Positions 33,165 to 62,150 of a stretch of DNA of 64,000 nucleotides are shown one piece after another. This DNA is from an uncultured Actinomycetes bacterium. Its GTDB lineage: Bacteria; Actinomycetota; UBA4738; JBBDTT01. The translations under genes were made by a program, and so were the position numbers. The DNA is taken from assembly GCA_963742735.1 (NCBI GenBank), contig CAVUMN010000003.1:307317-371316 (forward strand), read 5' to 3'. The notes under the pieces were generated by a model, which was given only the letters and a program-made list of their open reading frames with translations, was not told where the DNA came from and did no database searches. How positions within the stretch are numbered: the stretch's first letter is position 1; every line of letters begins with the position of its first letter.

Positions 33165-33168
33165 CAAA
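33123..33168 (+). repeat. attL: 46-bp direct repeat (3' half of tRNA-Met + 4 nt)
   Basis: CTCATAACCCAGAGGTCACAGGTTCAAATCCTGTCCCCGCGACAAA identical at 33123-33168 and 42476-42521. Confidence 0.85.
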
Positions 33169-33248
33169 GGAAACCGCAGGTCAGAGCGCCTGCGAGCGGA
33201 TAGCCGGCCCTCGGAGACCACGGTCCCGGGGGCCGATCTGCAAACAGA

Positions 33249-33887: not shown

Positions 33888-33902
33888 CGCCAGTCGTCCG
33901 AC

Positions 33903-35770: not shown

Positions 35771-35790
35771 CCCCGCAGTCTATCCCGAGC

Positions 35791-35873
35791 GGGAACGCTT
35801 AGGCAACACGTTCCCTGAATATCCCCCTTGTTTGTGCTCGGAATTAGGGGTAAGGCGTTGTCAGAGCGTTCCC
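35791..35873. promoter_or_regulatory. divergent promoter/operator region with GGGAACG / CGTTCCC inverted repeats
   Basis: GGGAACGcttaggcaacaCGTTCCC at 35791-35815 and another CGTTCCC at 35867-35873 between divergent hypothetical/int and XRE genes. Confidence 0.4.
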
Positions 35874-35894
35874 TAACCCCTACCGTGCCGAGGC

Positions 35895-36122
35895 ATGGAC
35901 GACGAACTGATGCAGGTGTCGAGGGCTCGGGCTCTGGTGAGCAGCGGGGCCGCTCGCTCGGTGCGGTTGGGCGCACGTCTCTCACTCTGGGAGCTGGCAG
36001 GGCAGATCGGATGCGCGCCCTCCACGGTCCTCCGGTGGGAACGGGGCGATCGCATTCCGCGGGGCGGCCTGGCTGTGCGCTACGTCGAAGCCCTGGACAC
36101 GCTGATGAAGGCCGCCCAGTGA
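35895..36122 (+). CDS. XRE-family (Cro/CI-type) HTH transcriptional regulator
   Basis: LSLWELAGQIGCAPSTVLRWERGDRIP typical HTH_XRE. Confidence 0.8.
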   Translation: MDDELMQVSRARALVSSGAARSVRLGARLSLWELAGQIGCAPSTVLRWERGDRIPRGGLAVRYVEALDTLMKAAQ

Positions 36123-36340
36123 AGGCTCTCGAGGACTACCCCCTGGTGATGCGGCCCGAGGAGGTCGCCGAGGCCCTTCGCTGCGGGCGGTCCTCGGTCT
36201 ATGAAGCCATCCGCCGGGGGGACATTCGAGCAGTGCGCCTTGGCCGTCGCGTGCTGGTTCCCAGGGCCGCGCTGGAGGAGCTTCTGGGTATCCAGGGAGC
36301 GGCGCAGCCGGCTTCGGTTTCCGAGGAGAGTGGGGCATGA
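36119..36340 (+). CDS. xis: excisionase/AlpA-family HTH DNA-binding protein
   Basis: GTGA overlap with XRE gene; LVMRPEEVAEALRCGRSSVYEAIRRGDIRAVRLGRRVLV is excisionase-family HTH. Confidence 0.7.
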   Translation: MKALEDYPLVMRPEEVAEALRCGRSSVYEAIRRGDIRAVRLGRRVLVPRAALEELLGIQGAAQPASVSEESGA

Positions 36341-36720
36341 CGGAGCCGGGCGACGTGCTCGCCGAGGTCATCAGCTTCCGCCGGGCCGCTCGGGCCATCG
36401 TCCGCGACGCATCGCTGGACAGGCACCAGAAGTACGCAGCCCTGATGCGACTGGCGATCCTCGCCCGTACCGAGGCTGCATTCCCGCGAGCGGCGCAGGG
36501 AGTCGTCGCTGATGAGGCGATCCCGCTACTGCATCCCGGGATGCATCCGGCACCGATCGACCCGGCAGAGCGGGAAGCGCGGCGACTTCGCGCCCAAGGC
36601 TACGGGAGCTGCCCGACGTGCCTCCGGTCGCTTCCCACGAACGCCGAGCTTGACCGGTGGAGGCGGCTGGCGGAGGACGCTGCGATGCGAGCGGCTCGCC
36701 GGGAGGCTCTGGTTCCGTGA
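36337..36720 (+). CDS. hypothetical protein (127 aa)
   Basis: ATGA overlap with xis-like gene; C-terminal CPTC motif. Confidence 0.5.
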   Translation: MTEPGDVLAEVISFRRAARAIVRDASLDRHQKYAALMRLAILARTEAAFPRAAQGVVADEAIPLLHPGMHPAPIDPAEREARRLRAQGYGSCPTCLRSLPTNAELDRWRRLAEDAAMRAARREALVP

Positions 36721-38012
36721 GCTCCACCGAAACCGAGCTGCTCGACCGGGTGAAATCGAACCTGCCCCCGGCCGTGCTCCCTGCCCCCGAGGGCTGGCCA
36801 CGGCTGGACCCGGCCGCCCGGTACGGGCTGGCGGGCGAGTTCGTCGCAACCGTTGAGCCACACACGGAGGCGGACGCGGTTGGGCTGCTGGTGGACTTCC
36901 TCACCGCGTTCGGCTCCGCCGTTGGCCCTGGCCCTCACGTCGAGGCAGACGGCGCTCGCCATGCCGGCGCACTGTTCGCCCTCCTGGTGGGCAACACAAG
37001 CCGGGCTCGGAAGGGAACTGCCCGGAAGCAGGTCGCTCGGTTCTTCGAGGGGGCGGATGCGGCCTGGGCGACGGGATGCGTCAAGGGCGGCCTGGCGTCG
37101 GGCGAGGGACTGGTGGCCGCGCTCCAGGATCCGCCAGAGGGCGAGGGCCGGCGAGACCCCCGCCTGCTTCTGGTTGAGGAGGAGTTCGCCCGCCTCTTGG
37201 CCGCTGCCGGGCGTGAGGGCTCAACGCTGAGCCACGTTGCACGCCAAGCCTGGGATGGCGGCCCGATCGCGGTGCTCACCCGCAAGGACCCGCTGAGCGC
37301 TTCGCCGAGTCACGTCTCGCTGATTGGCCACGTCACCGAGGAGGAGCTGCGCCGGCGACTGAGCTCGACCGAGGCCGCGAACGGGTTCGGCAACCGTTTC
37401 CTGATCGTCTTGGTACGGCGCTCAAAGCTGCTGCCGAGCGGGGGCCGGCCTGCCGAGGGGGACTTTGTTCGCCTGGTTCGCTTTATTCGCAACCGGTTGG
37501 AGGACGCCAGGAGACACACGCTGATCCAGCGCTCTCCCGATGCGGAGGGGTTGTGGGCGGACCTGTATCGAAGGATGGCCGCCGAGGATGAGCCCGGGAT
37601 GGTGGGCGCACTTCTCGCCCGTGACTCCGCCCAGCTCCTCCGCCTTTCTCTGGTGTACGCGCTTACCGATGCCTCTCCGACGATCGAGGTCCCGCACCTA
37701 GAAGCGGCTTGGGCCCTGTGGCAGTACTCGGCGGAATCGGTGCGGCACATCTTCGGGACCGTGCTGGGGGACGAGACCGCCGATCGGCTGTACGCGGCGA
37801 TCCTGGAGATGGGGGCAAAGGGCCTCGATGGAAAGGGGCAGCACGCCGCGTACGGCCGGCATGTTGACGGGGCGGAACTCGACCGGGCCCGGGCCGAGCT
37901 TGAGGAGCGCGGCCTGATCGTGACGCTCAACGTGGACACGGGTGGCCGGCCCCGCCTGGTCTCCTACGCGAAAGAAGCGAATAAAGCGAAAGAAGGTCCC
38001 CGTGGCCCGTGA
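36717..38012 (+). CDS. large element-encoded protein, possibly DUF3987-like (replication-associated?)
   Basis: GTG start overlapping previous stop (GTGA); 431 aa; family assignment by weak recollection only. Confidence 0.5.
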   Translation: MSSTETELLDRVKSNLPPAVLPAPEGWPRLDPAARYGLAGEFVATVEPHTEADAVGLLVDFLTAFGSAVGPGPHVEADGARHAGALFALLVGNTSRARKGTARKQVARFFEGADAAWATGCVKGGLASGEGLVAALQDPPEGEGRRDPRLLLVEEEFARLLAAAGREGSTLSHVARQAWDGGPIAVLTRKDPLSASPSHVSLIGHVTEEELRRRLSSTEAANGFGNRFLIVLVRRSKLLPSGGRPAEGDFVRLVRFIRNRLEDARRHTLIQRSPDAEGLWADLYRRMAAEDEPGMVGALLARDSAQLLRLSLVYALTDASPTIEVPHLEAAWALWQYSAESVRHIFGTVLGDETADRLYAAILEMGAKGLDGKGQHAAYGRHVDGAELDRARAELEERGLIVTLNVDTGGRPRLVSYAKEANKAKEGPRGP

Positions 38013-38436
38013 GGCTGACATTGCCGAGTTCGAGGCAGCGCTAGAGCGCGGCGTGGTGGAGTTCGCAGAGCTTGCCGCCCAGGGCGACTGGGGGCGTGCT
38101 GAGACACAGCTCGGCGTGGTGTTTGGAATCGCCTGGCTCGTGAGCGCGTACGCCGATCGTGCGTGAGAGCTCCCAGGCCAAGGGCCGGCGCTACCTACCC
38201 GAGGGCCCGGCGGTATGTCCGAACGGCGGGGCCCGGCGGTATTCGAGAATCCGGGCGCTTCAAGCGCTACGACCTGCCCGTTTTCGGGCCTGCCCAGGAA
38301 TGAGCGACCAGGGATTCTGGATCGGAGTGGCAAGCGAGGCGGCGGAGGATGCCGAGCAGCGTTGAGGAAGTCAAGGCGGGCGCTTCTTGCCAGGTGCACC
38401 GGAACCATTGACATGTCTCGCGGCAGAGGCGTACAA

Positions 38437-38886
38437 ATGAGCTTGGTGAAAAGCGCTCTGGCAGGCGGAAAGAGATCGATCCTCGTTGCCGCTTTCTTGC
38501 TCGCGGTCGTCGGCTTTGCGGCAGTGCTAACTGCTAGCGGGGGGGCGGAGGACTCGTCGGGCCTCGACTGCCCCGATGGATTTCGTAACACAGCGGTCTT
38601 CGAGCAAGGGGCTGAGTACGCCCCGTCGCCGGAAGATTCCGTGATGCGGACTGAAATACTTACGCAGCTGTTTGACCTACCACCGCAGGAGCGCCGCATG
38701 GGTACTGGCGGATCCGCTCGAGGCGGTATCGTCCGCTCAGACAACCGAGGCAGGCCGGACCGGGCTTCCTTTCAAGTCTTCCTGGACTCAAAGCCGCGTG
38801 CTTTGGTGACTTCAGTTCTCGTGGAGCCTGGCAAATGGCGTGTTACCACCGTTGAGTACTGCCCAAGCGCGGGTTCCTCCGACTGA
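38437..38886 (+). CDS. secreted hypothetical protein (signal peptide), low-GC cargo
   Basis: MSLVKSALAGGKRSILVAAFLLAVVGFAAVLTASGG signal/TM; local GC clearly lower than flanks. Confidence 0.5.
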   Translation: MSLVKSALAGGKRSILVAAFLLAVVGFAAVLTASGGAEDSSGLDCPDGFRNTAVFEQGAEYAPSPEDSVMRTEILTQLFDLPPQERRMGTGGSARGGIVRSDNRGRPDRASFQVFLDSKPRALVTSVLVEPGKWRVTTVEYCPSAGSSD

Positions 38887-39670
38887 CATGAACCCCAACA
38901 TCGCCCCGCTTGATGCGAATGGCAAACGAGTGTGGCGGGGCCTTGAAGGACTTACCGTATTTGCGTGGGCGATCCTTCTGGCCTTTGGCCCCGTCACGAT
39001 GGCCTATGCCCATTCAGTAGATCAATTCTGGGGTCCCGAGTGGGCAAACCAGGATAGGGGAACAAGCAAGCAGCATTTTTCGGTGACCGAAGAGGTCCCC
39101 GGAACGACGTCTTCCGCGACTTGGCCCCTGCGCGTCTACCAAGGGTCAGTAAGGTGGAACAACGTAGACATCGTCGATCCGGACATGTCATTCGGCGTAA
39201 AAGCCGCCATCGTCGCCAACTACAGCCCTTACAATCATTGCGGCTCGGACTACTTCTTTGAGAACGGCATGCACTACCGTGATGTCGCCGGGGACTCTTT
39301 GGCCGTGACGATCGTTTGCACCCAGAACACGATTTGGGGAGACCAGATTCGCAACTACCAAATGGTCTTCGACCCCAATGCCACTACGTGGTACACCGGA
39401 TCGGACCCCGATGCGGTGCCGTCCGGCTCAATGGATTTGATATACGTCGCTTCTCACGAGTTCGGCCACGCCGCTGGTGGCTGGAGCGATGACACTCCTG
39501 GCGGTCACTATGACTCGGCCAACAACAGCTTACTTTGCGGCATAGGTGTACCGGTGATAGATAGGCACACGATGTGCGCTTCAGCGACAGCCGGGCGGAC
39601 GCTTGACTCGAGGGCGCTCGAGTATCACGACGTCGACGTTTTCATCGAGGTCTACGATTTCGGCGGTTAG
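38887..39670 (+). CDS. secreted HExxH zinc metallopeptidase-like protein (metzincin-like)
   Basis: ATG directly after upstream TGA; N-terminal TM/signal (LTVFAWAILLAFGPVTMAYA); LIYVASHEFGHAAGGW motif; low GC. Confidence 0.6.
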
Positions 39671-39818
39671 GCTGAGGTTCAGCGCTTCGGGGGATCCCGG
39701 CGAGTGCGGGTCGGACGCCACGCTGACGGCCAGGTAACGAATGACAGATCGTCGGGGATCCGGGCAGCAGCGCGTTACTCGCCCGCCTGAAGACCAGCCG
39801 AATGTAGCCGCCGAGCCT

Positions 39819-40232
39819 TCAGCCATCGGCGAGGATCTCCCTGACTCGAGCCTCGCCGAGATGCTTCTCGAGCGTTTCTAGACGCCGCTGCCGATCCTTC
39901 TGCTCCCGCTCCCACTCCTCCCACCACTCGTCGAATTGGTCGCGTAGCACCTCCGAGCCCGGTTCGGTGCGCGGTGGGCTGGCCTCCTTCGCCACCGGCC
40001 CCAAGACACGCTCTAGAACCGTGGTAGCGGCGCGCAGACGGAGGCGCGGGTCCTCCGCATCGAGCAGGTCCACGAGCGTGGTGGCGGCCTTGTCCGCGTG
40101 GAGCTCGAGCCGCTCGAGGGTTTCCCCGATCCGATCTAGCCGGCGGCGTTCACGCTCGGCCGCACCAAGGACACCGTTCGCTTTGGGATCGGGACCGTCC
40201 GGGGAGCCGAAGGGCTTGCCTCGCACGGCCAC
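39819..40232 (-). CDS. hypothetical protein, paralog of 40252..40701 (FGxPDGPDP motif)
   Basis: Shares FGSPDGPDP...ERERRRL with neighbour's FGQPDGPDP...VRERRL; coiled-coil-like charged C-terminus. Confidence 0.5.
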   Translation of the reverse strand: MAVRGKPFGSPDGPDPKANGVLGAAERERRRLDRIGETLERLELHADKAATTLVDLLDAEDPRLRLRAATTVLERVLGPVAKEASPPRTEPGSEVLRDQFDEWWEEWEREQKDRQRRLETLEKHLGEARVREILADG

Positions 40233-40251
40233 CTGTCCGTTGCCGCTGTCG

Positions 40252-40701
40252 CTAATGGGGCCCCTCCGCTTGTTCGTGGGCTTCCATCTCGGCCAGCAGT
40301 TCGTCTACACGGCGGGAGAACTCGCCACGGGAGGTGTGCTCGATGTGCTGGTCGGCCTGGCCTATGGCCTGCTCAACTAGCCACCGGGCGTTCTGGGTGC
40401 GGATGGACCACGCCTCTTCGCCTTTGCGGGTGGCCCCCTTGATGGCCTCGAGGATGGTCTGGACAGCGCGAGGGGCGTTGAGGATCAGGGCTTGGCGGGT
40501 CTGGTCACGTCGCTGCTCGAGCCGGCGCTCCCTCACCTCGGTGGCTTTCCTGGCAGCCGCTACAGGATCGGGTCCGTCAGGCTGACCGAACCGGGTTCTA
40601 GAGCCCGCGTCACGCGGTCTGACCTGCTCATTCGCGGAGGCTCCCACGGCTCGATCGTATGGCCGGGGGGCGTTTGCATCGCGTTTGCGAGCCCCGAACA
40701 A
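40252..40701 (-). CDS. hypothetical protein, paralog of 39819..40232
   Basis: See above; tandem duplicated pair. Confidence 0.5.
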   Translation of the reverse strand: MFGARKRDANAPRPYDRAVGASANEQVRPRDAGSRTRFGQPDGPDPVAAARKATEVRERRLEQRRDQTRQALILNAPRAVQTILEAIKGATRKGEEAWSIRTQNARWLVEQAIGQADQHIEHTSRGEFSRRVDELLAEMEAHEQAEGPH

Positions 40702-40816
40702 AGGCCCGTTTACCTGCGGTTATGGGGAACCCTCTGGGTTGCTCACCCACTAGTTTGAGGTCCCCATTGACCATGGCGGAACCAGCGGCCGAGGATGGGG
40801 GATCGCGGGGGGCAGT

Positions 40817-41188
40817 ATGAGGCAGTACACGCAAGAAGAGCACGAGGCAGTCAGCCGAGCGATGAAGGACTTCTTTCGCGAGGTGGCCTCGCGCTTCGAG
40901 CACGTGGCCTTCCGAGACGATCTTCCCGGGCCCAGTGGCGAGCCGGGGGGGATCATCGAGCTCCGCTGTGAGCTTCCGGGTACCAGTCGGATTGCGGCGC
41001 TCGTCGGCGCGGATCAGATCGACCTATACCTCGGTCAGAGGACTTGGTGGGAGTTCCTACCCAGGTGGAAGGATCGGGGTCCCGAGCGGATGATTGCCCG
41101 GGTTCGCAACGCCATCGAAGACGTCGTGGCCGGGCGATTCAAGGAACGCATTGGATCTCGGATCGTGCGATATGCCCCGTACAGATAG
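40817..41188 (+). CDS. hypothetical protein (123 aa)
   Basis: RBS GGGGGG upstream of ATG; no family recognised. Confidence 0.45.
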   Translation: MRQYTQEEHEAVSRAMKDFFREVASRFEHVAFRDDLPGPSGEPGGIIELRCELPGTSRIAALVGADQIDLYLGQRTWWEFLPRWKDRGPERMIARVRNAIEDVVAGRFKERIGSRIVRYAPYR

Positions 41189-41223
41189 CTGATCGCGGAG
41201 GGACTATTGCGACTCGGCCACGC

Positions 41224-41772
41224 ATGAGAAAGCGAATCGGATCGGTGAGCCTCGCTCTTCTGGTCGCGTGCTCTGGCCCGGACAGTCCTCCCCAAGCCGA
41301 GCCCAGCGCCGCGCCGGCCAGTCCCTCCCCATCACCAGCGGTAGCGCTCTTGGACTTGGGGCAGGAGGGCAGCACAGCTGGCGGGACGCGAGTGACCGTC
41401 TACTCGGTCGCCCCCTCGAGTCGGAATGGCTACTCGCCACCGAGCGGGAGCACATGGCGCATCGCGGACACCAGGCTTTGCGCCTCGCTAGAGCAGCCTG
41501 GCCAGATCGGAGTGGGGCTGGTGGCGAGCTCGCAGTTCGTCGCCGAGAGTGCGGACGGGAGTTCCTACGCGGTGGACAGCGCCGGCGTTCTGTCGAACGA
41601 GCTGATGGCGCAACCCACACGGCTGCTCGATCCGGGCGAGTGCATCCGGGGACTGTTGGTGTTCGCTCTCCCGGCGCGGACGCCAGTTGCATCCGTTGTG
41701 TTCCTGGCAGCCAGCAGCCCCGATCCAGGCTCCGGCCTAACCGCGGCGATGAGGTGGCTCGTGCCGCGCTGA
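41224..41772 (+). CDS. lipoprotein (DUF4352-like beta-sandwich?)
   Basis: Lipobox LALLVACSG; start computed from ORF frame. Confidence 0.55.
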   Translation: MRKRIGSVSLALLVACSGPDSPPQAEPSAAPASPSPSPAVALLDLGQEGSTAGGTRVTVYSVAPSSRNGYSPPSGSTWRIADTRLCASLEQPGQIGVGLVASSQFVAESADGSSYAVDSAGVLSNELMAQPTRLLDPGECIRGLLVFALPARTPVASVVFLAASSPDPGSGLTAAMRWLVPR

Positions 41773-41849
41773 ACCGAGGGCCCGCCGTCGCTTTTCGCCC
41801 GCTTTTTCGCCAGTCAAAATGGCCCCCGCTCGGCCAGGGTCACCCATTT

Positions 41850-42313
41850 TGACCTGCGGTTTCTGTTGAGCCGGGCTCCAACGGACCTGGCCCCGCTAGA
41901 CCGATGCTTCTAGCATGCTGACCTGCGCTTTCCCCCCAGTTTCGGCCCAGTTCCGCGCCACCGAACTGGATATTGGGGTGGGGCCCCCTGCACGCCCCGC
42001 GTCACGCGGCCTGACCTGCGGTTTTTGGGAGAACGCTTCTACCGTTCTGACCTGCGGTTTTCATGGGGCTTGGCTTCATCCGAGCGACCTGCAACAACCC
42101 GCCCCCAAGCCGTGGATGATCCACGCTGACCTGCGGTTTTGGGTCGCCGGGGCGTCATGCGATGAACCCTTCCGACCTGCGGTTATCCCGTGGCCCCCCC
42201 CTACCCGCCGGTTCTACCGGTCTGACCTGCGGCTTTCGTGTGTCGTGGGCCCCCAACCCCCGTGCTTGTGAGGCACTAGGCTTTCGAGCGATGATCGTTC
42301 GTGACCTGCGGTT
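41850..42313 (+). repeat. cluster of nine direct 13-bp repeats TGACCTGCGGTTT (iteron/arm-site-like), noncoding
   Basis: Copies at 41850, 41919(v), 42012, 42048, 42085(v), 42127, 42173(v), 42222, 42301; three share extended TGACCTGCGGTTTTTGGG. Confidence 0.8.
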
Positions 42314-42475
42314 TTTGGGTCGCCGATCCCGCCGTCGATGCAAACGCTCTGCAAACGAACGCCGCACGTTCAAGCCTCGGCGAGACGGACGGGGGTGGAC
42401 AGGACGAGATGTGTTCCCGCACGGCCCAGCACGGGGCCGGACGCGACCTAGCTTGAGCGGACAGCGATCAGCAAA

Positions 42476-42521
42476 CTCATAACCCAGAGGTCACAGGTTC
42501 AAATCCTGTCCCCGCGACAAA
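42476..42521 (+). repeat. attR: duplicated 3' 46 nt of tRNA-Met followed by native terminator hairpin
   Basis: Identical to 33123-33168; followed by GAAGCCGCAGGtcacgcaCCTGCGGCTTC hairpin. Confidence 0.85.
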
Positions 42522-42617
42522 CGCGAAGCCGCAGGTCACGCACCTGCGGCTTCTCGCGTTGAAGGGGCGAATCCCCGGAGTCCGCGGCGGGTATGAACCA
42601 GGGAGGAGGTGGTCGTC

Positions 42618-52029: not shown

Positions 52030-52081
52030 CCCGCATCGGCGCCTCTGACCTCCCCGCGGTGGCCGGGGTATCTTCCTGCCC

Positions 52082-53398
52082 GTGTTCGGCAAGGTCCTGG
52101 TCGCCAACCGCGGTGAGATCGCCTGCCGCGTGCTCCGCACCCTCCACCGGCTCGGGGTAGCCGGCGTCGGCGTGTACTCCGACGCCGACGCCCAGGCCAA
52201 GCACGTTCGCGAGGCCGCCGAGTCGGTGCGGATCGGCGAGCCTCCGGCCACGGTGTCCTATCTGAACCCCGCCGCGATCGTGGATGCGGCCCTGGCGAGC
52301 GGCGCGGAGGCCATCCATCCCGGCTACGGATTCCTCTCCGAGAACGCGATGTTCGCTCGGGCGGTGGCCGACGCCGGGCTGGTGTTCATCGGCCCGCCCC
52401 CCGAGGTGCTCGAGCTCTCCGGCGACAAGGTGGCCGCCCGCAAGGCGTTCGACGCGGCGGGGTTCCCGGTGCTTCCCGGAGGTGGGCCGTACGAGACCCC
52501 GGAGGAGGCGCTGGCCGCGTCCGCGGAGGTCGGCTTCCCGATCATGGTGAAGGCGACGTCGGGCGGCGGCGGGATCGGCATGGGCATCGCCGAGGACGAG
52601 ACGGAGCTCGTCAAGCAGGTCGAGACGGCCTCCACCCGGGGGGAGCGGTTCTTCTCCGACGCCTCCGTCTACCTGGAGCGGTACGTGCCGGGAGGCCGGC
52701 ACATCGAGGTGCAGATCTTGGCCGACGACGCCCGGACGCTGCACCTGTACGAGCGCGAGTGCTCGGTCCAGCGGCGGCACCAGAAGGTGGTGGAGGAGTC
52801 GCCGTCGCCGGCGCTCGACGAGCCGCTGCGCGAGGAGATCTGCCGGGCCGCGGTGGCCGCGATGGAGTCGATCGGGTATCGCGGCGCCGGAACCGTCGAG
52901 TGCATCCTGACGCGCGACCGCGAGTTCTTCTTCCTGGAGGTCAACGCGCGACTGCAGGTCGAGCACCCCGTCACCGAGATGCTCACGGGGCTCGACCTGG
53001 TCGAGGAGCAGCTGCGGATCGCCGCCGGCGAGGGCATGTCGATCGAGGACACTCCGTCGAAGAGCGGGCACGCGATCGAGTTCCGCCTCTACGCGGAGGA
53101 TCCCCGAACCTTCCTGCCCGCCCCGGGCCGCGTCGAACGGCTCGTCCTGCCCGAGGACCCCGGGCGATGGCGGTACGACTTCGGGTACGACGAGGGGGAC
53201 GAGGTGCCGATGTTCTACGACCCGCTGATCGGCAAGATCATCGTGCACGGCGACGAGCGGACCGATTCGTTGGACGGTACGCCGCTGGACCTCGTGGAGA
53301 TCGAGGGCCTGAAGACCAACCTTCCCGCGCTGCGGACCGTCCTCGCCGGAGAGCGGTTCCGGTCGGGGGAGTACGACACCGGGTTGCTGGGACGATGA
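52082..53398 (+). CDS. biotin carboxylase (acyl-CoA carboxylase alpha-type, no BCCP domain)
   Basis: ATP-grasp motifs; ...GGGGIGMGIA..., EVNARLQVEHPVTEM; lacks biotinyl domain. Confidence 0.9.
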   Translation: MFGKVLVANRGEIACRVLRTLHRLGVAGVGVYSDADAQAKHVREAAESVRIGEPPATVSYLNPAAIVDAALASGAEAIHPGYGFLSENAMFARAVADAGLVFIGPPPEVLELSGDKVAARKAFDAAGFPVLPGGGPYETPEEALAASAEVGFPIMVKATSGGGGIGMGIAEDETELVKQVETASTRGERFFSDASVYLERYVPGGRHIEVQILADDARTLHLYERECSVQRRHQKVVEESPSPALDEPLREEICRAAVAAMESIGYRGAGTVECILTRDREFFFLEVNARLQVEHPVTEMLTGLDLVEEQLRIAAGEGMSIEDTPSKSGHAIEFRLYAEDPRTFLPAPGRVERLVLPEDPGRWRYDFGYDEGDEVPMFYDPLIGKIIVHGDERTDSLDGTPLDLVEIEGLKTNLPALRTVLAGERFRSGEYDTGLLGR

Positions 53399-54177
53399 GC
53401 GACGACGTCGTCCTCTACGAGGTGCGTGGGGCGTCGGCGTGGGTCACGATCAACCGGCCGGAGTCCCGCAACGCCCTGAACCCGGACGTCATGTCCGGAC
53501 TGGCCGACGCGGTGGAGCGTGCCGGGGCCGACGAGTCGCTGCGGGCGGTGGTGCTCACCGGGGCGGGTGACCGAGCCTTCTCAGCAGGCGGCGATCTCGG
53601 GGGGTTCGCGCCGGATACCTCGAAGGTGGCCCAGCACGGCGCCCGCGGGGCGATGGCTCGGTTGCTCGAGGCGCTGCAGGACTGTCCCCTCCCGGTGATC
53701 GCCCGGGTGCGGGGCCGGTGCCTGGCCGGGGGGTTCGGCCTGGCGCTGGGCTGTGACCTGATCGTCGCCGCGGACGACGCCGAGTTCGGCACGCCGGAGA
53801 TCGACATCGGGCTGTGGCCGTACATGATCACCGCGGTCATCCAGCGGAACATGCCTCGGAAGGTGGCCCTCGACCTCATGCTGACCGGGCGCCGGATGGA
53901 CGCCGCCGAGGCGGCGAGGTGGGGGATCGTGAACCGGGTCGTTCCGTCCGATGGTCTGGACGGCGCGGTGGACGAGCTGGTCGCCGTGCTGGCCGGCAAG
54001 AGCCCGCTCATCCTCCGGCTCGGGAAGGGCTCGTTCTACCGCGCCCAGGACATGACCTTCTCCGACGCCCTCGCGTTCCTCCACTCGATGCTCACGGTCA
54101 ACCTCGAGGCCGAAGACGTCGTCGAGGGAATCACCGCGTTCATGCAGAAGCGTCCCCCCGACTGGAAGGGTCGCTAG
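53395..54177 (+). CDS. enoyl-CoA hydratase/isomerase family protein
   Basis: ATGA overlap; crotonase fold AFSAGGDL, GRCLAGGFGLALGCDL. Confidence 0.85.
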   Translation: MSDDVVLYEVRGASAWVTINRPESRNALNPDVMSGLADAVERAGADESLRAVVLTGAGDRAFSAGGDLGGFAPDTSKVAQHGARGAMARLLEALQDCPLPVIARVRGRCLAGGFGLALGCDLIVAADDAEFGTPEIDIGLWPYMITAVIQRNMPRKVALDLMLTGRRMDAAEAARWGIVNRVVPSDGLDGAVDELVAVLAGKSPLILRLGKGSFYRAQDMTFSDALAFLHSMLTVNLEAEDVVEGITAFMQKRPPDWKGR

Positions 54178-54269
54178 GACCACCCGAGCGGGCTCTTGAC
54201 CGGCCGGCCTCGGCCTGATATTCCACATCGCATTTCGCCGGCCGGCCCGATCGAGCAGGGAGGCGCCTC

Positions 54270-55034
54270 ATGGCCACGGTCATCGACAACGTCAAGCGCG
54301 CGAAGAAGGGGCTTCCCGAGAAGGGGCAGCTCGTGATCGACAACGGCGTCGTCGAATGGCGAGGCGAGAAGGACGGGATCAAGACGCTGAGCGACGTCAA
54401 GGGCGTCGGGGTCTCGCTGAGCGCGCCCGGGGCCGTCGTCATCACCTATGGGGATCCCCAGCAGCAGGAGCAGTTCATCGACTTCAGGCGCGGGGCGCTG
54501 AAGACCCAGGGCCAGGCGAAGGTGCTCGAGCAGGACATCCGCGATGCTCTCGGACTGACGGCGGCATCGGCGGTGCCGTCCGACCCCGTGGCGGCCGGCA
54601 ACTTCCAGCGGATGGCGGCCCAGGCCGAGAAGTCGGCGGGAGCCAAGGGGATGATCTTCGGGGCGATCGCGCTCGCCGTCGGGATCGGGATCACCGTCGT
54701 CACCTACGGGAACGCGTCCAGCAGCCCCTCCGGCGGCAGGTACATCGTCGCGTGGGGGCCGATGCTGTTCGGGTTCATCGCGTTCGTGCAAGGGTTGTTC
54801 CGCTTCGTGAAGGGCAACGGCCAGCTCGCCAGGGCCGGCATGGCGCCGGCCGCGCAGACCGCGCCGCCCCCCACGGGGCCGCCGGTCGCCCCGCCCCCAC
54901 CGGCCGCGCCGGCTCCCGCCGACGCCGCGCCCGCGTATCCGCCTCAGGCCGCTCCGCCCCCGCCCCCGCCGATGTCGACGCCGGTGATCCTGCCGCCGCC
55001 CTCCGCGCCGCCCCCTCCGCCACCCGCGCCCTGA
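54270..55034 (+). CDS. membrane protein with proline-rich C-terminus (hypothetical)
   Basis: 2 TM helices; C-terminal PPPPPP-rich tail. Confidence 0.55.
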   Translation: MATVIDNVKRAKKGLPEKGQLVIDNGVVEWRGEKDGIKTLSDVKGVGVSLSAPGAVVITYGDPQQQEQFIDFRRGALKTQGQAKVLEQDIRDALGLTAASAVPSDPVAAGNFQRMAAQAEKSAGAKGMIFGAIALAVGIGITVVTYGNASSSPSGGRYIVAWGPMLFGFIAFVQGLFRFVKGNGQLARAGMAPAAQTAPPPTGPPVAPPPPAAPAPADAAPAYPPQAAPPPPPPMSTPVILPPPSAPPPPPPAP

Positions 55035-55131
55035 GGCGTGCCGGCGGGGGGCCGGGCTACAGTAGGCGCGAGCGGGCCCCGGAAAGCATCGGGGGTTGAG
55101 CCTCCGGCGACGGGCCCCGAGGAGGTGAACG

Positions 55132-56784
55132 ATGGCGGACCCCACGCCGTCTCCCGTTGCATCCGAGGGTGGCGAAGCGCCCGTGAGCACACCGGCGAAG
55201 CCCGCCCCAACCCTGACCTATTCCGGCCCGACGATGGCCGAGGCCACGGCGGATCTCCACCGGCGCCGCGACGACGCGCGCCAGATGGGCGGCCCCGAGC
55301 GCATCGAGCGGCAGCATGCCGGCGGCAAGCTGACCGTTCGTGAGCGCCTCGAGCGGCTGTACGACGAGGGCTCGTTCCTCGAGTTCGGGATGCTGGCGCA
55401 CCACCAGTCGGCGTCGCCGGCGATGCAGGGCAAGAACACGCCCGCCGACGGGGTCGTGTGCGGCATCGGCACGATCGACGGCCGCCGCGTCGCCCTGATC
55501 GCGTACGACTTCACGGTGATGGCCGGCTCGATCGGCATGGTCGGGGAGCTCAAGGCGACCCGGATGCGCGAGCTCGCGCTCAAGGAACGGATCCCCATCG
55601 TGTGGCTGATCGACTCGGCCGGCGCCCGCATCCAGGAGGCCGCCGGCTCGATGTTCGCCCGCACCGGCGACCTGTTCAAGGAGCAGGTCCACATGAGCGG
55701 GGTGATTCCACAGGTCTCCGCGATGATGGGCCCCGGCGCCGCAGGGACGGCGTACATCCCCGGGCTCGCCGACTTCGTGCCGATGGTCAAGGGCACCTCG
55801 AACATGGCCCTCGGAGGACCGCACCTGGTGAAGGCGGCGGTGGGCGAGGACGTCACCGCCGAGGACATGGGCGGCTCCGCGGTGCACAACAAGGTCTCCG
55901 GCGTGGCGGACCTCGAGGTCGCCGACGACGACGCCTGCCTGGAGGCCGTGCGCACCTACCTGTCGTTCTTCCCGTCCTCGAATCTGGAGAAGCCGCCGAT
56001 CCGGGAGACGTCCGACCCCATCGATCGCCGATGCGACCTGCTGCTCGATCTGGTCCCGGCCAACCCGCGGCAGGCGTACGACATGCGCAAGCTCATCGCG
56101 GAGGTCGTGGACGACCACGAGTTCTTCCCGATGAAGCCGGACTGGGCCCGCAACCTGATCACGGGCTTCGCCCGAATCGGTGGACGGCCGGTGGGGATCG
56201 TGGGCAACCAGCCGATGTTCCTGGGCGGCGCCCTGGATGTGAACTCCGCGGACAAGGCGGCCCGGTTCGTGTGGCTCTGCGACGCCTTCCATGTCCCGCT
56301 CGTCTTCCTGATGGACTGCCCCGGGTTCCTGGTCGGCTCGGCGGTCGAGAAGCAGGGGATCATCCGCCACGGCGCCAAGATGCTGTTCGCGGTGGCCGAG
56401 GCCACCGTCCCGAAGGTCACGGTGGTGATCCGCAAGGGCTACGGCGCCGGCTACTACGTGATGAACGGGCGGGCGTACGAGCCCGACATGATCGTCGCGT
56501 GGCCGACCGCGGAGATCTCGGTGATGGGCCCCGAGGGCGCGGTGAACATCATCTTCCGCAAGCAGATCGAGGCCGCGCCGCCGGAGCAGCAGGACGAGAT
56601 GCGGGACTCGCTGATCAACACGATCCGGGAGCAGATCAACCCCTACGTGGCGGCGGGCTGGTCGTTCGTGGACGACCTCATCGATCCCGCCGACACCCGG
56701 ACCGTGCTCGCTCGAGCGCTCGCGTTCGCCGAGACCAAGGTGGTCGAGCGGCCCTGGCGGAAGCACGGGGTGCTGCCGGTCTGA
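55132..56784 (+). CDS. acyl-CoA carboxylase carboxyltransferase (beta) subunit
   Basis: RBS GAGGAGG; PccB/AccD5-like motifs throughout. Confidence 0.9.
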   Translation: MADPTPSPVASEGGEAPVSTPAKPAPTLTYSGPTMAEATADLHRRRDDARQMGGPERIERQHAGGKLTVRERLERLYDEGSFLEFGMLAHHQSASPAMQGKNTPADGVVCGIGTIDGRRVALIAYDFTVMAGSIGMVGELKATRMRELALKERIPIVWLIDSAGARIQEAAGSMFARTGDLFKEQVHMSGVIPQVSAMMGPGAAGTAYIPGLADFVPMVKGTSNMALGGPHLVKAAVGEDVTAEDMGGSAVHNKVSGVADLEVADDDACLEAVRTYLSFFPSSNLEKPPIRETSDPIDRRCDLLLDLVPANPRQAYDMRKLIAEVVDDHEFFPMKPDWARNLITGFARIGGRPVGIVGNQPMFLGGALDVNSADKAARFVWLCDAFHVPLVFLMDCPGFLVGSAVEKQGIIRHGAKMLFAVAEATVPKVTVVIRKGYGAGYYVMNGRAYEPDMIVAWPTAEISVMGPEGAVNIIFRKQIEAAPPEQQDEMRDSLINTIREQINPYVAAGWSFVDDLIDPADTRTVLARALAFAETKVVERPWRKHGVLPV

Positions 56785-56906
56785 GCGCCGTCCCGGCCGA
56801 GGCCTCGCCGGACGAGCTCGTCGCCGGCATCGAAGCGCACCATCGCGAGCTCTCGGCGAAGTGGGCGAGGGCGCAGGGAGGCGTCGTCGACGACCGGCCT
56901 CAGCTG

Positions 56907-57605
56907 GTGCGGACGGTGGTCGGGCTCCCCGTGTCCTACACCAACCAGATCAACGCCGCGCGCCTCACGCCGGATGACGCCGACGCCGAGATCGCCGCCA
57001 CCGAGGCGTTGCTGGAGGGCCACGGCGTGCCCGGGATGTGGGTGGTCGGCCCCCTCAGCACGCCGGCGGATCTTGGCGAACGCCTGGTGCGGCGAGGATG
57101 GGTGCACGACGAGGACCTCCCGTGGATGGCCGCGCCGATCTCCCGGCTGCTCGAGCCCGGCCCCGAGGCCCCGCCGGGGCTGCGGGTGGAGGTCGTGGAC
57201 GACGACCACGCGCAGGCCCGGTGGCTCTCGGTGATGAGCGATGGGTTCGGGATGGACGCGAACGGGCGGGAGGCGATGTCGCGGCTGGCGGCGGCGGTCG
57301 GGTACGGCGAGGACCGCCCCTGGCGGCGGTTCGTGGGCTCGATCGACGGACGTCCGGTCGGCAGCGCCGGGCTGATGACCACCGAGCGGGTGGCCGGCGT
57401 GTACAACGTGGCGACGGTCCCCGACGCCCGTCGGCTGGGCGTGGGCGCCGCGATGACCGCCGTCGCCCTCAGGGAGGGCCGGTCCCGGGGCTTCGAGGTC
57501 GCCGTCCTGGGCGCCTCCACCAAGGGCTATGGGGTCTACCGGCGGATGGGCTTCGCCGAGGTCTGCCGGGTCGGCCTGTACGACTGGACGCCGCCGCCGG
57601 GCTAG
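56907..57605 (+). CDS. GNAT family N-acetyltransferase (start uncertain; frame open from 56785)
   Basis: C-terminal GNAT core ...VATVPDARRLGVGAAMTAV...GYGVYRRMGF; no canonical start until GTG 56907. Confidence 0.55.
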   Translation: MRTVVGLPVSYTNQINAARLTPDDADAEIAATEALLEGHGVPGMWVVGPLSTPADLGERLVRRGWVHDEDLPWMAAPISRLLEPGPEAPPGLRVEVVDDDHAQARWLSVMSDGFGMDANGREAMSRLAAAVGYGEDRPWRRFVGSIDGRPVGSAGLMTTERVAGVYNVATVPDARRLGVGAAMTAVALREGRSRGFEVAVLGASTKGYGVYRRMGFAEVCRVGLYDWTPPPG

Positions 57606-58342
57606 GCGTCGGGGGGCGACAGCAGATACGCGGAGGCCTCCCGATCGAACGCCGTCGCCACCAGGCCGGCGGCCATCGCCGCCTGCAGCTCGTCCGCGAC
57701 CGAGTCCCGGAGGGCTCGGGCCCCCTCCGGATCGGAGATGCGCAGCGCCTCGTGGTCGGCCGGGATGGTCACCCGCGCGGTCACCTCGGCCACCTCGCGC
57801 GGGCCCGGCGCTCCGTGGAGGTCCCACCGAACCTCCAGTCGGTCCGATCGCTGGCCACGGTTCACGTCGTCGTCCATGTCGCCGTAGTAGTGCTTGTGGA
57901 AGCGGTCCGCCACCGTCCCCAGGATCTGGAGGTTGAAGTACGCGTTGCGGGCGATGAGCGGATCGAACGTCCAGCGCATCGTGCCGATGCCCTGTTTCAG
58001 GGCCCACGCGCGCTGGGCCAGCTTCAGGGCTCGGCCCACGCCCCTGGACCGCTCGCCCCCGGTGACGGCGAGCTGATGGGAGTGCACGTGGAGCCCGTCC
58101 TCGCCCGCCCCGATGAACCCCAGGACGAACCCAACGACCTCCTCGCCGGCGAAGGCGCCCAAGGGGGGGATCCCGGCTCCCTGGAAGGCGCGGATCACCT
58201 CCCGGGGCACCAGCTGGCCGTCGCCCCACGCCTCTCGTTGGAGCCGGACGACCGCGCCCGCCTCGTCGAGGGTGGTGAGGGTCCGGATATCCACGCCGGC
58301 CTCCCCGGCGGCGAGCCGGGCGGCTTCGTGGGGATCGTCCAT
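57602..58342 (-). CDS. GNAT family N-acetyltransferase
   Basis: Acetyl-CoA binding motif QLAVTGGERSRGVGRALK; convergent with previous GNAT (4-nt overlap). Confidence 0.7.
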   Translation of the reverse strand: MDDPHEAARLAAGEAGVDIRTLTTLDEAGAVVRLQREAWGDGQLVPREVIRAFQGAGIPPLGAFAGEEVVGFVLGFIGAGEDGLHVHSHQLAVTGGERSRGVGRALKLAQRAWALKQGIGTMRWTFDPLIARNAYFNLQILGTVADRFHKHYYGDMDDDVNRGQRSDRLEVRWDLHGAPGPREVAEVTARVTIPADHEALRISDPEGARALRDSVADELQAAMAAGLVATAFDREASAYLLSPPDA

Positions 58343-58382
58343 GGCCGGCGAGTGTAGCCCCGCCGGCGGTACCCTCCTGGCG

Positions 58383-58982
58383 ATGGCGACCGACGAGCCC
58401 CACCTCGTGATGCACGAGCTGCACCGCCGGGCGGGGGAGACCTTCAACGCAGTTCTCCGGCAGGCGAACGGGACGGACTGGCATGCCCCGACGCCGTGCG
58501 GGGAATGGGACGTTCGCGAGCTCGTTCACCATGTGGTCTCCGGCAACCTCTGGGTGCCCCCACTCGTGGCCGGCGAGAGCCTCGCCGAGGCGGGAGCACG
58601 CCTCGACGGCGACCTGCTCGGGGACGATCCGATCGGGGTCGGGCTGGCCTCGACCGTGGCGGCCACCGCGGCGTTCGATGAGCCCGGCGCCCTGGAGCGA
58701 ACGGTGGAGCTCTCGCGCGGGCCGTCTCCGGCCCTGGACTACTGCGCCGAGCGGATGAACGACCTGGCGATCCACGCCTGGGACCTGGCCGCGGCCCTCG
58801 GGGTCACCGTCGAGCTCGACCGCGAGTGCATGGCCGCGGCGACGGCGTACCACCGGCCGCAGGAGGCAGTGGGGCGGCCCGCAGGGATGTTCGGTCCGCC
58901 GGTCGATGTCGCGCCGGACGCCGATCCACAGACCCGCTTCCTGGCGTTCTGGGGCCGACGCGCCGACTGGGCCCCCGAATAG
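58383..58982 (+). CDS. DinB/YfiT-like (mycothiol-dependent maleylpyruvate isomerase N-terminal domain, TIGR03086-like) protein
   Basis: HELHRRAGETFNAV...WDVRELVHHVV family signature. Confidence 0.65.
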   Translation: MATDEPHLVMHELHRRAGETFNAVLRQANGTDWHAPTPCGEWDVRELVHHVVSGNLWVPPLVAGESLAEAGARLDGDLLGDDPIGVGLASTVAATAAFDEPGALERTVELSRGPSPALDYCAERMNDLAIHAWDLAAALGVTVELDRECMAAATAYHRPQEAVGRPAGMFGPPVDVAPDADPQTRFLAFWGRRADWAPE

Positions 58983-59014
58983 CGCCGGGTCCCCGCGGGG
59001 CCTAGAGTCTGGCC

Positions 59015-59575
59015 ATGACCGCGCCCGGGGTCGGCGACCCAGCCCCCGACTCGGTCCTCTGGGATCCCGACGGCGAGGACGTCGCGCTCTCCAGCTTCTG
59101 GAGGGAGCGGCCCGCGCTGCTGGTGTTCCTCCGGCACTGGGGCTGAACGTTCTGCCGCCGGCACGTCGCGCAGTTGCGTGACGAGGAGGACCGACTGACG
59201 CCGCTGGCCAACGTCGTGTTGGTGGGCCAGGGGCGGCCCGAGCATGCCCGGGACTTCTGCGCGGCTCGCCGCGTCGCCGACCGCTTCCACTGCACGGTCG
59301 CTCCGCACAACGAGACGTATCGCCAGTACGGCCTCGACCGGGGGTCGTGGATGGCGGTGGCCGGGCCGAAGGTGTGGCTCCCCGGCGCGCAGTCCTTCTT
59401 CGGCCCCGAGACGCACCAGGGCCGAACGAAGGGCGACCCGATCCAGCTCGCCGGCACCTTCGTGATCGACGCGGCCGGCGTGATCCGCTTCGCGCACCGA
59501 AACCGGACGTCGGCGGATAATCCTGCGAACGAGGACGTGCTGGCCGCTCTCGAGGCGGTCGTCTCGGGTTCCTGA
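59015..59575 (+). CDS. peroxiredoxin-like (AhpC-TSA_2) protein with in-frame TGA at first Cys of GCxxC: candidate selenoprotein (GUTFC)
   Basis: Translation through TGA at 59144-59146 gives ...ALLVFLRHWG-U-TFCRRH... matching family motif FLRHFGCxFCR; hairpin CGTCGCGC-AGTT-GCGTGACG 17 nt downstream. Confidence 0.6.
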
Positions 59576-59590
59576 GGAAACGGAGGTCAG

Positions 59591-60478
59591 GTGGCGGTCC
59601 AGGACAAGGTGATCATCACGTGCGCCGTCTCCGGTGCGGTGGCGAACAAGCAGCAGTGCCCGGGCATTCCGTACACGCCCGAGGAGTACGCGAAGGAGGT
59701 CCGCCGGGCTCGTGACGCGGGCGCCACGATGGTCCACATCCACGCCCGGGAGCCCAACGGGACGCCGACCGTCAAGGCCGAGCACTACAAGGCCATCACC
59801 CAGGCGGTTCTCGCCGAGACGCCCGACATCATCATCAACTACTCCACCGGCTTCGTGGGGCTTCCGATGGCGGAGCGCGTCGCCCACATCGTCGAGCTCA
59901 AGCCCGAGGTCGGCGCGCTGAACATGGGCTCCATGAACTACGCGAAGTACTCGCCGAAGCGCAAGGGGTTCGTCTTCAACTTCGTGTTCGAGAACCACTT
60001 CGACGACATCATCTTTCTGCTCGAGCGCATGAAGGAGGCCGGTGTGAAGCCGGAGTGCGAGACCTTCGACGTCGGCCACGTGGAGTCGGTCGCCCCGCTT
60101 GTGGATCTGGGCGTGCTCACCCCGCCGATCCAGTTCTCTCTGATCCACGGCGTGCTGGGGGGCATCCAGGCCACCGCTCGCAACCTGGCCCACATGTCGA
60201 GCGTCGTCCCGGACGGGTCGACGTGGGGGGTCATCGCCATCAGCCGGAACCAGTGGATGATGGTCGCGGCGTCGGCCACCCTGGGCGGCAACGTGCGGGT
60301 CGGCTTCGAGGACAACTTCTACCTCCCGTCGGGGGAGATGGCGTCCTCGAACGGCGAGCTCGTGGAGTCGGCGGCCGCGATCTGCCGGCTGCAGGGACGC
60401 GAGGTCGCGGAGCCCCAGGAGGCCCGATCGCTGCTGTCGCTGCCCCTCGAGCCCGACCGAACCGCGGTGATGGCCTGA
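59591..60478 (+). CDS. 3-keto-5-aminohexanoate cleavage enzyme family (BKACE/DUF849, Kce-like)
   Basis: GTG start; VIITCAVSGA...MVHIHAREPNG...GFEDN hallmark of BKACE. Confidence 0.85.
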   Translation: MAVQDKVIITCAVSGAVANKQQCPGIPYTPEEYAKEVRRARDAGATMVHIHAREPNGTPTVKAEHYKAITQAVLAETPDIIINYSTGFVGLPMAERVAHIVELKPEVGALNMGSMNYAKYSPKRKGFVFNFVFENHFDDIIFLLERMKEAGVKPECETFDVGHVESVAPLVDLGVLTPPIQFSLIHGVLGGIQATARNLAHMSSVVPDGSTWGVIAISRNQWMMVAASATLGGNVRVGFEDNFYLPSGEMASSNGELVESAAAICRLQGREVAEPQEARSLLSLPLEPDRTAVMA

Positions 60479-60693
60479 TGGCCACCGAGGTCCAGGCCGA
60501 GATGGTCGCCAACGTCTGGAAGATCGTCGTGGCGCCCGGAGACACGGTGGCCGCCGGCGACCCGCTGGTGATCCTGGAGTCGATGAAGATGGAGATCCCC
60601 GTGGAGTCCCCGGTGGACGGCACCGTGAGCGAGCTCCGCGTCCAGGAGGGGGGCGTCGTCCAGGAGGGCGACGTCATCGCGGTCGTCGAGTAA
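60478..60693 (+). CDS. standalone biotin carboxyl carrier (biotinyl/lipoyl) domain protein, 71 aa
   Basis: TGATG coupling to kce; ESMKME biotinylation motif. Confidence 0.8.
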   Translation: MATEVQAEMVANVWKIVVAPGDTVAAGDPLVILESMKMEIPVESPVDGTVSELRVQEGGVVQEGDVIAVVE

Positions 60694-60702
60694 CGTCGCC
60701 GC

Positions 60703-61494
60703 GTGACGCTGGTTCGCATCGAGCCCGGCCGGGTCTGGCGGCTCACGCTCGACCGCCCGGAGCAGCGCAACGCGGTCTCCGCGGCGATGATGGAGGAGTT
60801 CCTCTCGGCGCTGGGCGACGCCGCCGTCGATCCCGCCGCGCGGGCGATCGTCCTGGCGGGCGCCGGCGACCACTTCTGCGCCGGAGCCGACGTCGCGGAG
60901 CTCCTGGAGGCCACCGGGGGTCCGGGGGCGATCGAGTACGGCCGCGCATTCGAGGAGGTCCTCCGGGCGATCGGCGACCACCCCGTGCCGGTCATCGCCC
61001 GGGTCCAGGGGGCGGCCCTGGGGGCGGGCTGCCAGCTCGCGGTGGCCTGCGACCTCGCCGTGGCGGCCGAGGACGCCAGGATCGGAATCCCGTCGTCGCG
61101 TCTCGGCCTGCTCATCAACGTCGAGAACATCGAACGCCTCACGCTCTCCGCCGGATCGAAGCGGGCCGCCGAGCTCCTCTTCACCGGCCGGGCCCTGGAG
61201 GGAACGGAGGCCGCAGCGTGGGGGATCATCAACCGTGCGGTGCCCGCCGCGGACCTCGACCAGGAGGTGGATCGGCTGGCGAAGCTCATCGCGGACGGGG
61301 CGCCGATCTCCGTCCGGGGTTCGAAGCGGGGGATCCAGGCCGTGCTGGGAGCCCTGTCCATGGACGAGACGACCGAGCGGGACCGCATCGCGGAGTTCGA
61401 CATGATGGCCGCGCAGGCCCTGGCCAGCGAGGACCTCCGTGAGGGGATCGCGGCCTTCCGCGAACGACGCCCTCCGGAGTTCCGAGGCACGTGA
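60703..61494 (+). CDS. enoyl-CoA hydratase/isomerase family protein
   Basis: GTG start; crotonase motifs FCAGADV, GAALGAGCQLAVACDL. Confidence 0.85.
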   Translation: MTLVRIEPGRVWRLTLDRPEQRNAVSAAMMEEFLSALGDAAVDPAARAIVLAGAGDHFCAGADVAELLEATGGPGAIEYGRAFEEVLRAIGDHPVPVIARVQGAALGAGCQLAVACDLAVAAEDARIGIPSSRLGLLINVENIERLTLSAGSKRAAELLFTGRALEGTEAAAWGIINRAVPAADLDQEVDRLAKLIADGAPISVRGSKRGIQAVLGALSMDETTERDRIAEFDMMAAQALASEDLREGIAAFRERRPPEFRGT

Positions 61495-62150
61495 CGCCGG
61501 CGAGGCTCGGCCGGGACAGCCCGCTCGAGGAGCGAGCTCCCGTGGTGATCGACCGCCTGAAGGCGGCGTACCCCGACGCGACCGTCGCCCTGAAGTTCTC
61601 GAACCCGCTCGAGATGCTGGTGGCGACCATCCTGTCGGCCCAGTGCACCGACGAGAAGGTGAACGAGGTCACGGCCACGCTGTTCAAGAAGTACCGGTCG
61701 TGCGAGGACTACCTGAAGGTCCCCGAGGACGAGCTCCGTACGGACATCTTCTCGACGGGCTTCTACAACCAGAAGGCGAAGGCGATCCGCGGCGCGTGCC
61801 GGGTGCTGCTCGAGGAGTTCGACGGGCGGATTCCCGACACCATGGAGGAGATCGTCCGGCTCCCCGGGGTGGCCCGAAAGACCGGGAACATCGTCCTGGG
61901 CAACGCCTACGGCGTGGTCGAGGGGATCGCCGTCGACACCCACGTCAAACGCGTGGCCACGCGGCTGGGGTTCACCGGCCAGAAGGATCCCGACAAGGTC
62001 GAGCGCGAGCTGATGGCGCGCATCCCGAAGGAGGACTGGTTCTCGTTCACCTACGTGCTCATCGATCACGGACGCCGGATCTGCCAGGCGAAGCGCCCGT
62101 TGTGTGAGGAATGCCCGGTGAACGACCTGTGTCCGTCGAGCCTCGTGTAG
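61491..62150 (+). CDS. nth: endonuclease III
   Basis: HhH-GPD (LPGVARKTGNIVLG) and C-x6-C-x2-C-x5-C FeS motif (CQAKRPLCEECPVNDLC). Confidence 0.9.
   Translation: MTPARLGRDSPLEERAPVVIDRLKAAYPDATVALKFSNPLEMLVATILSAQCTDEKVNEVTATLFKKYRSCEDYLKVPEDELRTDIFSTGFYNQKAKAIRGACRVLLEEFDGRIPDTMEEIVRLPGVARKTGNIVLGNAYGVVEGIAVDTHVKRVATRLGFTGQKDPDKVERELMARIPKEDWFSFTYVLIDHGRRICQAKRPLCEECPVNDLCPSSLV

Follow-up and report, generated by a model that had tools for sequence, protein, structure and literature searches.

A probable UxxC selenoprotein gene of the SelL-related family, with a candidate SECIS element, in an uncultured Actinomycetota lineage

On the forward strand of the window (the whole 64-kb stretch of DNA that was analysed), a reading frame begins with ATG at 59015, meets an in-frame TGA at 59144–59146 in the context LLVFLRHWG-TGA-TFCRRH, and ends with a terminal TGA at 59573–59575. 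Translated through the internal TGA, the putative gene (59015–59575, forward strand, terminal stop included) encodes a protein of 186 residues, in which the UGA is codon 44, presumptively selenocysteine (Sec44), and the first residue of a U44-T-F-C47 redox motif. The second, resolving Cys of this UxxC motif (TGC codon 47, 59153–59155, forward strand) is invariant across all the Sec and Cys forms aligned. The ORF list of the locus contains only a 43-aa ORF at 59015–59146 and a TTG-initiated ORF of 133 aa at 59174–59575 (forward strand); the latter, which is also the NCBI/ENA entry (P0001), appears to be spurious. The original prediction had pointed out that the ORF track sees the downstream TTG fragment, which is the case, and the 43-aa ORF can be added to it. 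The TTG at 59174 corresponds to Leu54, and its first two bases belong to the loop of the hairpin described below.

The GC content at third codon positions (GC3), calculated in the same frame, is 0.95 for the codons preceding the TGA and 0.91 for those that follow; these high values on both sides indicate that one coding frame spans the TGA. The proposal of a single 186-residue gene read through 59144–59146 is therefore upheld by both the translation and the continuous GC3. When the 64 kb were scanned for in-frame TGA codons with coding signal on both sides, only the site at 59144 and two ordinary gene junctions were obtained, and neither the window nor the orthologue loci yielded a further selenoprotein gene of this kind. 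A reassignment of TGA in the genetic code was also considered and rejected, because TGA is an ordinary stop in 13 of the 23 confident genes of the window, including the terminal stop of the peroxiredoxin-like (Prx-like) gene itself. An ATG or GTG occupies the start position in 10/10 orthologues.

The gene is part of a syntenic block with the order carboxyltransferase, GNAT acetyltransferases, MDMPI_N/DinB-like protein, Prx-like selenoprotein gene, BKACE, biotinyl/lipoyl carrier, enoyl-CoA hydratase and endonuclease III-like protein. From biotin carboxylase to endonuclease III, the block occupies 52049–62150 of the window and is conserved in six orthologue loci (L001–L006). A TAGAGT hexamer of the −10-like TANNNT type is located at 59003–59008 (forward strand), at −12 to −7 from the start codon, and TAGAGT, TAGACT or TACACT was found at identical spacing, exactly 6 nt 5′ of the ATG or GTG, in 10/10 orthologues (L001–L006, L026–L028 and the window). 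An E. coli-type promoter/terminator scan returned nothing at the hexamer or the gene. The conserved spacing suggests that the hexamer could be an actinobacterial −10 box, serving a putative leaderless mRNA that would start at the ATG. The organism belongs to the Actinomycetota: among the best 120 matches to the FtsH protein encoded in the window, those with a name are proteins of "Actinomycetota bacterium" MAGs, and none is from a cultured relative.

Elsewhere in the window, a tRNA-Met gene (33091–33165) is followed by a phage-type integrase gene (33906–35408, reverse strand), and the region of 38–43 kb, which comes next in window coordinates, has a GC content of 0.60–0.66 and few high-GC3 ORFs; the stretch 33091–42600 is probably a mobile element integrated at a tRNA gene. 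An FAD-linked oxidase gene (about 20400–21782, forward strand) is split over two frames near 21180–21200, and the FAD-oxidase_C match in the ORF 21204–21779 starts at profile position 86. This frameshift is a pseudogene or an assembly indel error.

With Cys substituted at the TGA, the encoded protein matched the Pfam families AhpC-TSA (5.9e-12), AhpC-TSA_2 (3.5e-10) and Redoxin (8.5e-8), with scores of 40.7 against a cut-off of 27 for PF13911 and 46 against a cut-off of 26 for PF00578. It also matched NCBIfam NF040769, "SelL-related redox protein", over model positions 2–172 of 173; its 142.8 bits exceed the cut-off of 120. The proposed AhpC-TSA_2/redoxin-like nature of the protein is borne out by these Pfam and NF040769 matches. 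In the alignment with full-length homologues, the TGA column is the first Cys of a CxxC motif, FLR[YH][FL]G-C-[PIV]F-C, and U44 is aligned with that Cys in P0014–P0041 and in the loci L008–L020, in agreement with the suggestion that the TGA replaces the first Cys of the family motif (Cys to Sec, UxxC). A Cys at the U44 position occurs only in homologues of ≤49% identity.

The fold was assessed by proxy, using the Cys homologue P0015, which is 49% identical to the window protein. Its AlphaFold model (pLDDT 89.8) shows a peroxiredoxin/thioredoxin fold with a strand at 35–39, Cys45 and a helix at 46–57, and Bcp, AhpE and PGFS are its best PDB folds. In this model, the Cys equivalent to U44 sits at the N-terminus of the helix 46–57, directly after the strand 35–39. 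A canonical peroxiredoxin (PxxxT/SxxC(U)) was rejected as an assignment: the window protein reads FLRHWG-U-TFC, with no Thr or Ser three residues before the reactive residue. The canonical peroxiredoxin mechanism falls with it, because there is no TxxC/U motif and the reactive residue is the first in a CxxC-type motif. SelL proper (UxxU) does not apply either, as there is only one internal TGA and the motif reads U-T-F-C; a single Sec in UxxC makes the protein SelL-related rather than SelL. We infer that the enzyme is thioredoxin-like, a UxxC oxidoreductase or peroxidase in which Cys47 takes part in a selenenylsulfide. The selenolate of Sec44 would attack an oxidised substrate such as a disulfide or a peroxide, Cys47 would resolve the intermediate to a selenenylsulfide, and a cellular thiol system would re-reduce the latter. 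Two other cysteines, Cys82 (59258–59260, DFC) and Cys93 (59291–59293, FHC), are invariant in the seven orthologues of the first alignment, and Cys93 is frequent in the Cys-form homologues too; a further redox or resolving role is conceivable for both.

Among 5.8 billion proteins searched, the 13 closest homologues have 65–99% identity; all of these are 123–136-aa gene calls starting 3′ of the TGA, and full-length homologues in the same search were found only at ≤49% identity. The DNA of nine of the short homologues (65–84% identity), from different samples, was fetched from JGI, ENA, NCBI and Logan, giving an orthologue set of independent metagenomes and MAGs (counts of 10/10 include the window gene). 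A scan of genome contigs yielded one species representative of the Sec subfamily, and a scan of metagenome contigs yielded three loci. TGA was found in frame at the same codon in 9/9 fetched orthologues, or 10/10 with the window gene. An uninterrupted Cys codon in close relatives, which the original prediction had named as evidence against a selenoprotein, was found in none of them. The 43-codon N-terminus 5′ of the TGA is conserved in the fetched orthologues, and VFLRHWG-U-TFCR is invariant among the orthologues. By pairwise Nei–Gojobori estimates, dN/dS is 0.50 upstream of the TGA, with dN<dS in 44 of 45 pairs, and 0.30 downstream; between the window gene and each orthologue it is 0.28–0.43 at dS of 0.43–0.67. 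Purifying selection acts on both sides of the TGA.

Downstream of the TGA, a hairpin with an 8-bp stem and an AGUU loop is located at 59164–59183 (forward strand; loop 59172–59175, conserved G at 59173), with the form CGUCGCGC-AGUU-GCGUGACG. It starts 17 nt 3′ of the TGA, as predicted, and folds with −12.6 kcal/mol and z = −3.5, a stability reached by 0/200 shuffles. The 81-nt context has z = +0.45, that is, no unusual stability at 70% GC, and a 50-nt context is likewise not significant; with the wider context unexceptional, stability by itself proves little and comparative evidence is needed. A published model of bacterial SECIS elements specifies a loop of 3–9 nt, an upper stem of 4–16 bp, an energy of ≤−7.5 kcal/mol, a G within the first two loop positions and a UGA-to-loop distance of 16–37 nt (PMC13188914). 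The hairpin lies within all of these constraints (loop 4 nt, stem 8 bp, UGA-to-loop distance 25 nt, −12.6 kcal/mol), and G followed by U at loop positions 2–3 satisfies the published G requirement. A possible extended SECIS (59149–59191, forward strand) would include a lower stem, in which GUUCU at 59149–59153 is paired with AGGAC at 59187–59191 in the RNAalifold consensus of the 10 orthologues; a GAC to GAU change in three sequences keeps a G-U pair there. The lower stem is weaker, and it is not conserved in distant subfamilies. No SECIS match was obtained with Rfam.

Among the orthologues, the upper stem differs by five codon changes at four positions (CAC to CAU twice, CGU to CGC twice and GCG to GUG once), and pairing is kept by all of these substitutions, which are one-sided and wobble-compatible only. 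Synonymous divergence reaches the minimum of the whole gene over the hairpin (HVAQLRDEE), at 0.083 compared with a mean of 0.33. The rare codon TTG (3% of Leu) is kept in 10/10 orthologues and forms part of the loop, and the rare codon CGT (5% of Arg) is kept in 8/10; together, they build the loop and the G-U pair. These comparative patterns indicate that the hairpin is under RNA-level constraint.

Beyond the orthologues, TGA was found at the same position in three more subfamilies, which are about 28–37% identical. One comprises two soil-metagenome contigs (L024 and L025) with FLRHFG*L[HL]C, where * denotes TGA, and another comprises three Rokubacteria MAGs (L013, L021 and L022) with VG[GR]*PFCRRHVAQLG, whose Burkholderiales counterparts read CPFCRRHVAQLG. 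The third is a contig of 44.5% GC (L029) with TGA at 758–760; the corresponding database entry (P0047) has a Trp in the active site, a product of gene calling with a code in which TGA means Trp. The same W is present in P0046 and P0049, which probably also have TGA in the DNA. The distant subfamily (25–32% identity) with TGA forms in Rokubacteria (L013, L021 and L022) is represented in Burkholderiales and other Proteobacteria (L014, L015, L017, L018 and L020) by Cys forms, with two copies per locus.

A hairpin with an AGUU loop recurs at the same distance from the TGA, with altered stems, in the three other TGA subfamilies, such as GUCGCCC/GGGCGGC in Rokubacteria and UGGCGC/GCGCCA in L029. Across the 16 TGA forms, 98.9% of cells pair, and the covariation score was reached by 0/500 shuffles; compensatory double changes occur at two pairs (C24-G37 to G-C and G27-C34 to C-G) and come from only two distant lineages. 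The hairpin is absent from 14/14 Cys-form gene copies checked (12 loci), including those encoding CPFCRRHVAQLG, and Cys forms with the same HVAQL peptide use CAA CTC, whereas the TGA forms use CAG TTG. A covariance model gave 58–78 bits for TGA forms and 16–35 bits for Cys forms, with a single match in the window. The original assignment of the hairpin as a bacterial SECIS element is thus reinforced, in that it fits the published model (PMC13188914), covaries and is missing from Cys forms. On one possible reading, the near-identical AGUU-loop candidate SECIS at +29 in Actinomycetota, Rokubacteria and the organism of 44% GC would make Sec ancestral to the whole SelL-related family and the Cys forms derived.

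Combined with the above analysis, we consider that 59015–59575 is one selenoprotein gene, in which the attacking Cys, the N-terminal one of the CxxC active site, is replaced by a Sec encoded by the in-frame TGA, with a probability of roughly 0.9. TGA and TGC differ by one base, and the same assembly has at least one frameshifted gene, namely the FAD-linked oxidase near 21.2 kb, so that a pseudogene or a sequencing or assembly error, in which TGC to TGA inactivated an ordinary CxxC Prx-like gene, deserves to be weighed. It is nevertheless exceedingly improbable, since the identical TGA is present in 10/10 independent assemblies at dS of about 0.43–0.67, dN/dS is 0.3–0.5 on both sides, TGA occupies the same site in three other subfamilies, and the downstream RNA structure is conserved in TGA forms only. 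The conserved TGA and the dN/dS pattern cannot be accounted for by a pseudogene or sequencing error, and the four sources (NCBI, ENA, JGI and Logan) exclude an artefact of a shared pipeline. We give almost no credence to a true stop with two separate products, a peptide of 43 aa and a protein of 133 aa initiated at TTG 59174, even though gene callers annotate the locus in this way and this TTG is kept in all the orthologues. The split would cut the thioredoxin fold within the active site, and it would leave T45–Q53, including the invariant Cys47, untranslated, yet this segment is conserved with the Cys homologues at the protein level. No Shine–Dalgarno sequence precedes TTG 59174, GC3 remains at coding level through 59147–59173, and the hairpin loop, to which this TTG contributes, accounts for its conservation.

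The recoding itself could also be stimulated by the hairpin while the inserted residue is not Sec. Cys could be inserted by a tRNA(Sec)-like tRNA(Cys) with a SelB-like factor, or Trp or Cys by near-cognate read-through, in a lineage without selenophosphate synthesis. The former route to Cys has reportedly been described by Mukai and co-workers. The inserted residue cannot be told from sequence alone, Sec machinery was not observed in the 64-kb window and the fetched loci, and most of the habitats are oxic soils, in which Sec is uncommon (PMC13188914). On the other hand, the hairpin obeys every constraint of the canonical SelB-type SECIS model, the family has documented Sec members, and Rokubacteria, now placed in Methylomirabilota, share the module; for one Methylomirabilota MAG, 63 predicted selenoprotein genes have been reported. 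A Cys product would need only one TGA to TGY change, yet 0/16 sequences show it. A residue other than Sec is accordingly held to be highly unlikely. The related proposal for the clade as a whole, that it lacks a canonical selenium pathway and that the UGA and hairpin would insert a non-Sec residue, e.g. Cys delivered by a tRNA(Sec)-like tRNA with the help of a SelB-like factor, is very unlikely as well; if true, it would mean that a SECIS-type recoding device has been retained by oxic-soil Actinomycetota for a non-selenium purpose.

In the favoured reading, Sec insertion, the UGA at 59144 would not be read as a stop during translation. The mRNA hairpin at 59164–59183, with the G of its AGUU loop 26 nt after the UGA, would act as a bacterial SECIS and recruit SelB-GTP-Sec-tRNA(Sec) to the ribosome, so that Sec is inserted, in a presumably SelB-dependent manner. 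In the 64-kb window, no selA, selB or selD turned up, SelA, SelB and SelD domains being absent from the roughly 36 genes annotated with Pfam; nor was there a tRNA-Sec, ARAGORN and Rfam giving only a tRNA-Met. A tRNA search in 16 related loci returned nothing, and no selA, selB or selD was present in any fetched locus. Sec machinery is reportedly present in some mycobacteria (PMC13449736). The sources of the TGA-form sequences are mostly soils, and aerobic bacteria rarely retain selenoproteins according to a 2026 review (PMC13188914).

The stem-loop resembles the E. coli fdhF-type SECIS in its location within the coding sequence, immediately 3′ of the UGA, and in having G-U in a small apical loop. 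In the fdhF SECIS, the loop G is at +23 from the U of the UGA, whereas here it is at +30, no bulged U is evident and the stem sequence is unrelated.

SelL proper carries two Sec residues in a UxxU motif and forms a diselenide. The window protein resembles SelL/NF040769 in its full-model match and in having the redox motif at the same place, but differs from SelL proper in its UxxC motif with one Sec. It also shares an AhpC/TSA-type thioredoxin fold with the Prx-like thiol:disulfide oxidoreductase selenoproteins of Zhang and Gladyshev (PF00578, UxxC/UxxU), for which, as here, Cys homologues are common and a bacterial SECIS lies just 3′ of the UGA. Unlike those PF00578 proteins, its best models are AhpC-TSA_2 and NF040769; and whereas the published Prx-like selenoproteins come from marine bacteria, Deltaproteobacteria and Clostridia, the members of this clade are uncultured Actinomycetota found in soils and a salt lake. 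Prx-like UxxC selenoproteins are on record from the selenoproteomes of the Sargasso Sea and GOS (PMC1088965, PMC2398784), the GOS paper mentioning SelL only as a Prx-like protein (PMC2398784), and Prx-like selenoproteins are among the high-confidence predicted families in the 2026 review (PMC13188914). That Prx-like oxidoreductases are a known bacterial selenoprotein class, as originally stated, is in line with all three sources (PMC1088965, PMC2398784, PMC13188914). The review also lists a cd02970 peroxiredoxin-like family with UxxS (PMC13188914). Sec is likewise first in the motif here, and NCBI names the orthologue P0004 "peroxiredoxin-like family protein", but the published motif is UxxS rather than UxxC, and the two were compared by description only.

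Among solved structures, the best sequence match is human PRXL2B (9us9, E 2.7e-5), the prostamide/prostaglandin F synthase of the PRXL2/SelU group (AhpC-TSA_2). Its RRFGCVVCR is aligned with RHWGUTFCR of the window protein, with the catalytic CxxC at the same position, and the predicted model of the Cys homologue P0015 superposes on 9usa with an rmsd of 2.2 Å and a TM score of 0.71. Unlike the window protein, PRXL2B is a eukaryotic Cys enzyme; the two are about 22% identical, and there is no sign of a prostaglandin-type substrate in the bacterium.

The class is already known (Prx-like UxxC, since 2005), and what is new is this gene, in an uncultured Actinomycetota lineage; the known workings of selenoproteins are unchanged by the finding. 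For the databases, it means that NCBI, ENA and JGI carry a full-length redox enzyme only as a 133-aa fragment without its active site (P0001 and 12 relatives), and that other family members are shown with an erroneous Trp at a TGA codon (P0047). A UGA with an AGUU-loop hairpin at +22 to +39 provides a family signature for re-annotation. The finding implies that an uncultured lineage of soil and salt-lake Actinomycetota decodes Sec, which would extend the use of Sec to a habitat and a group where it has been thought rare.
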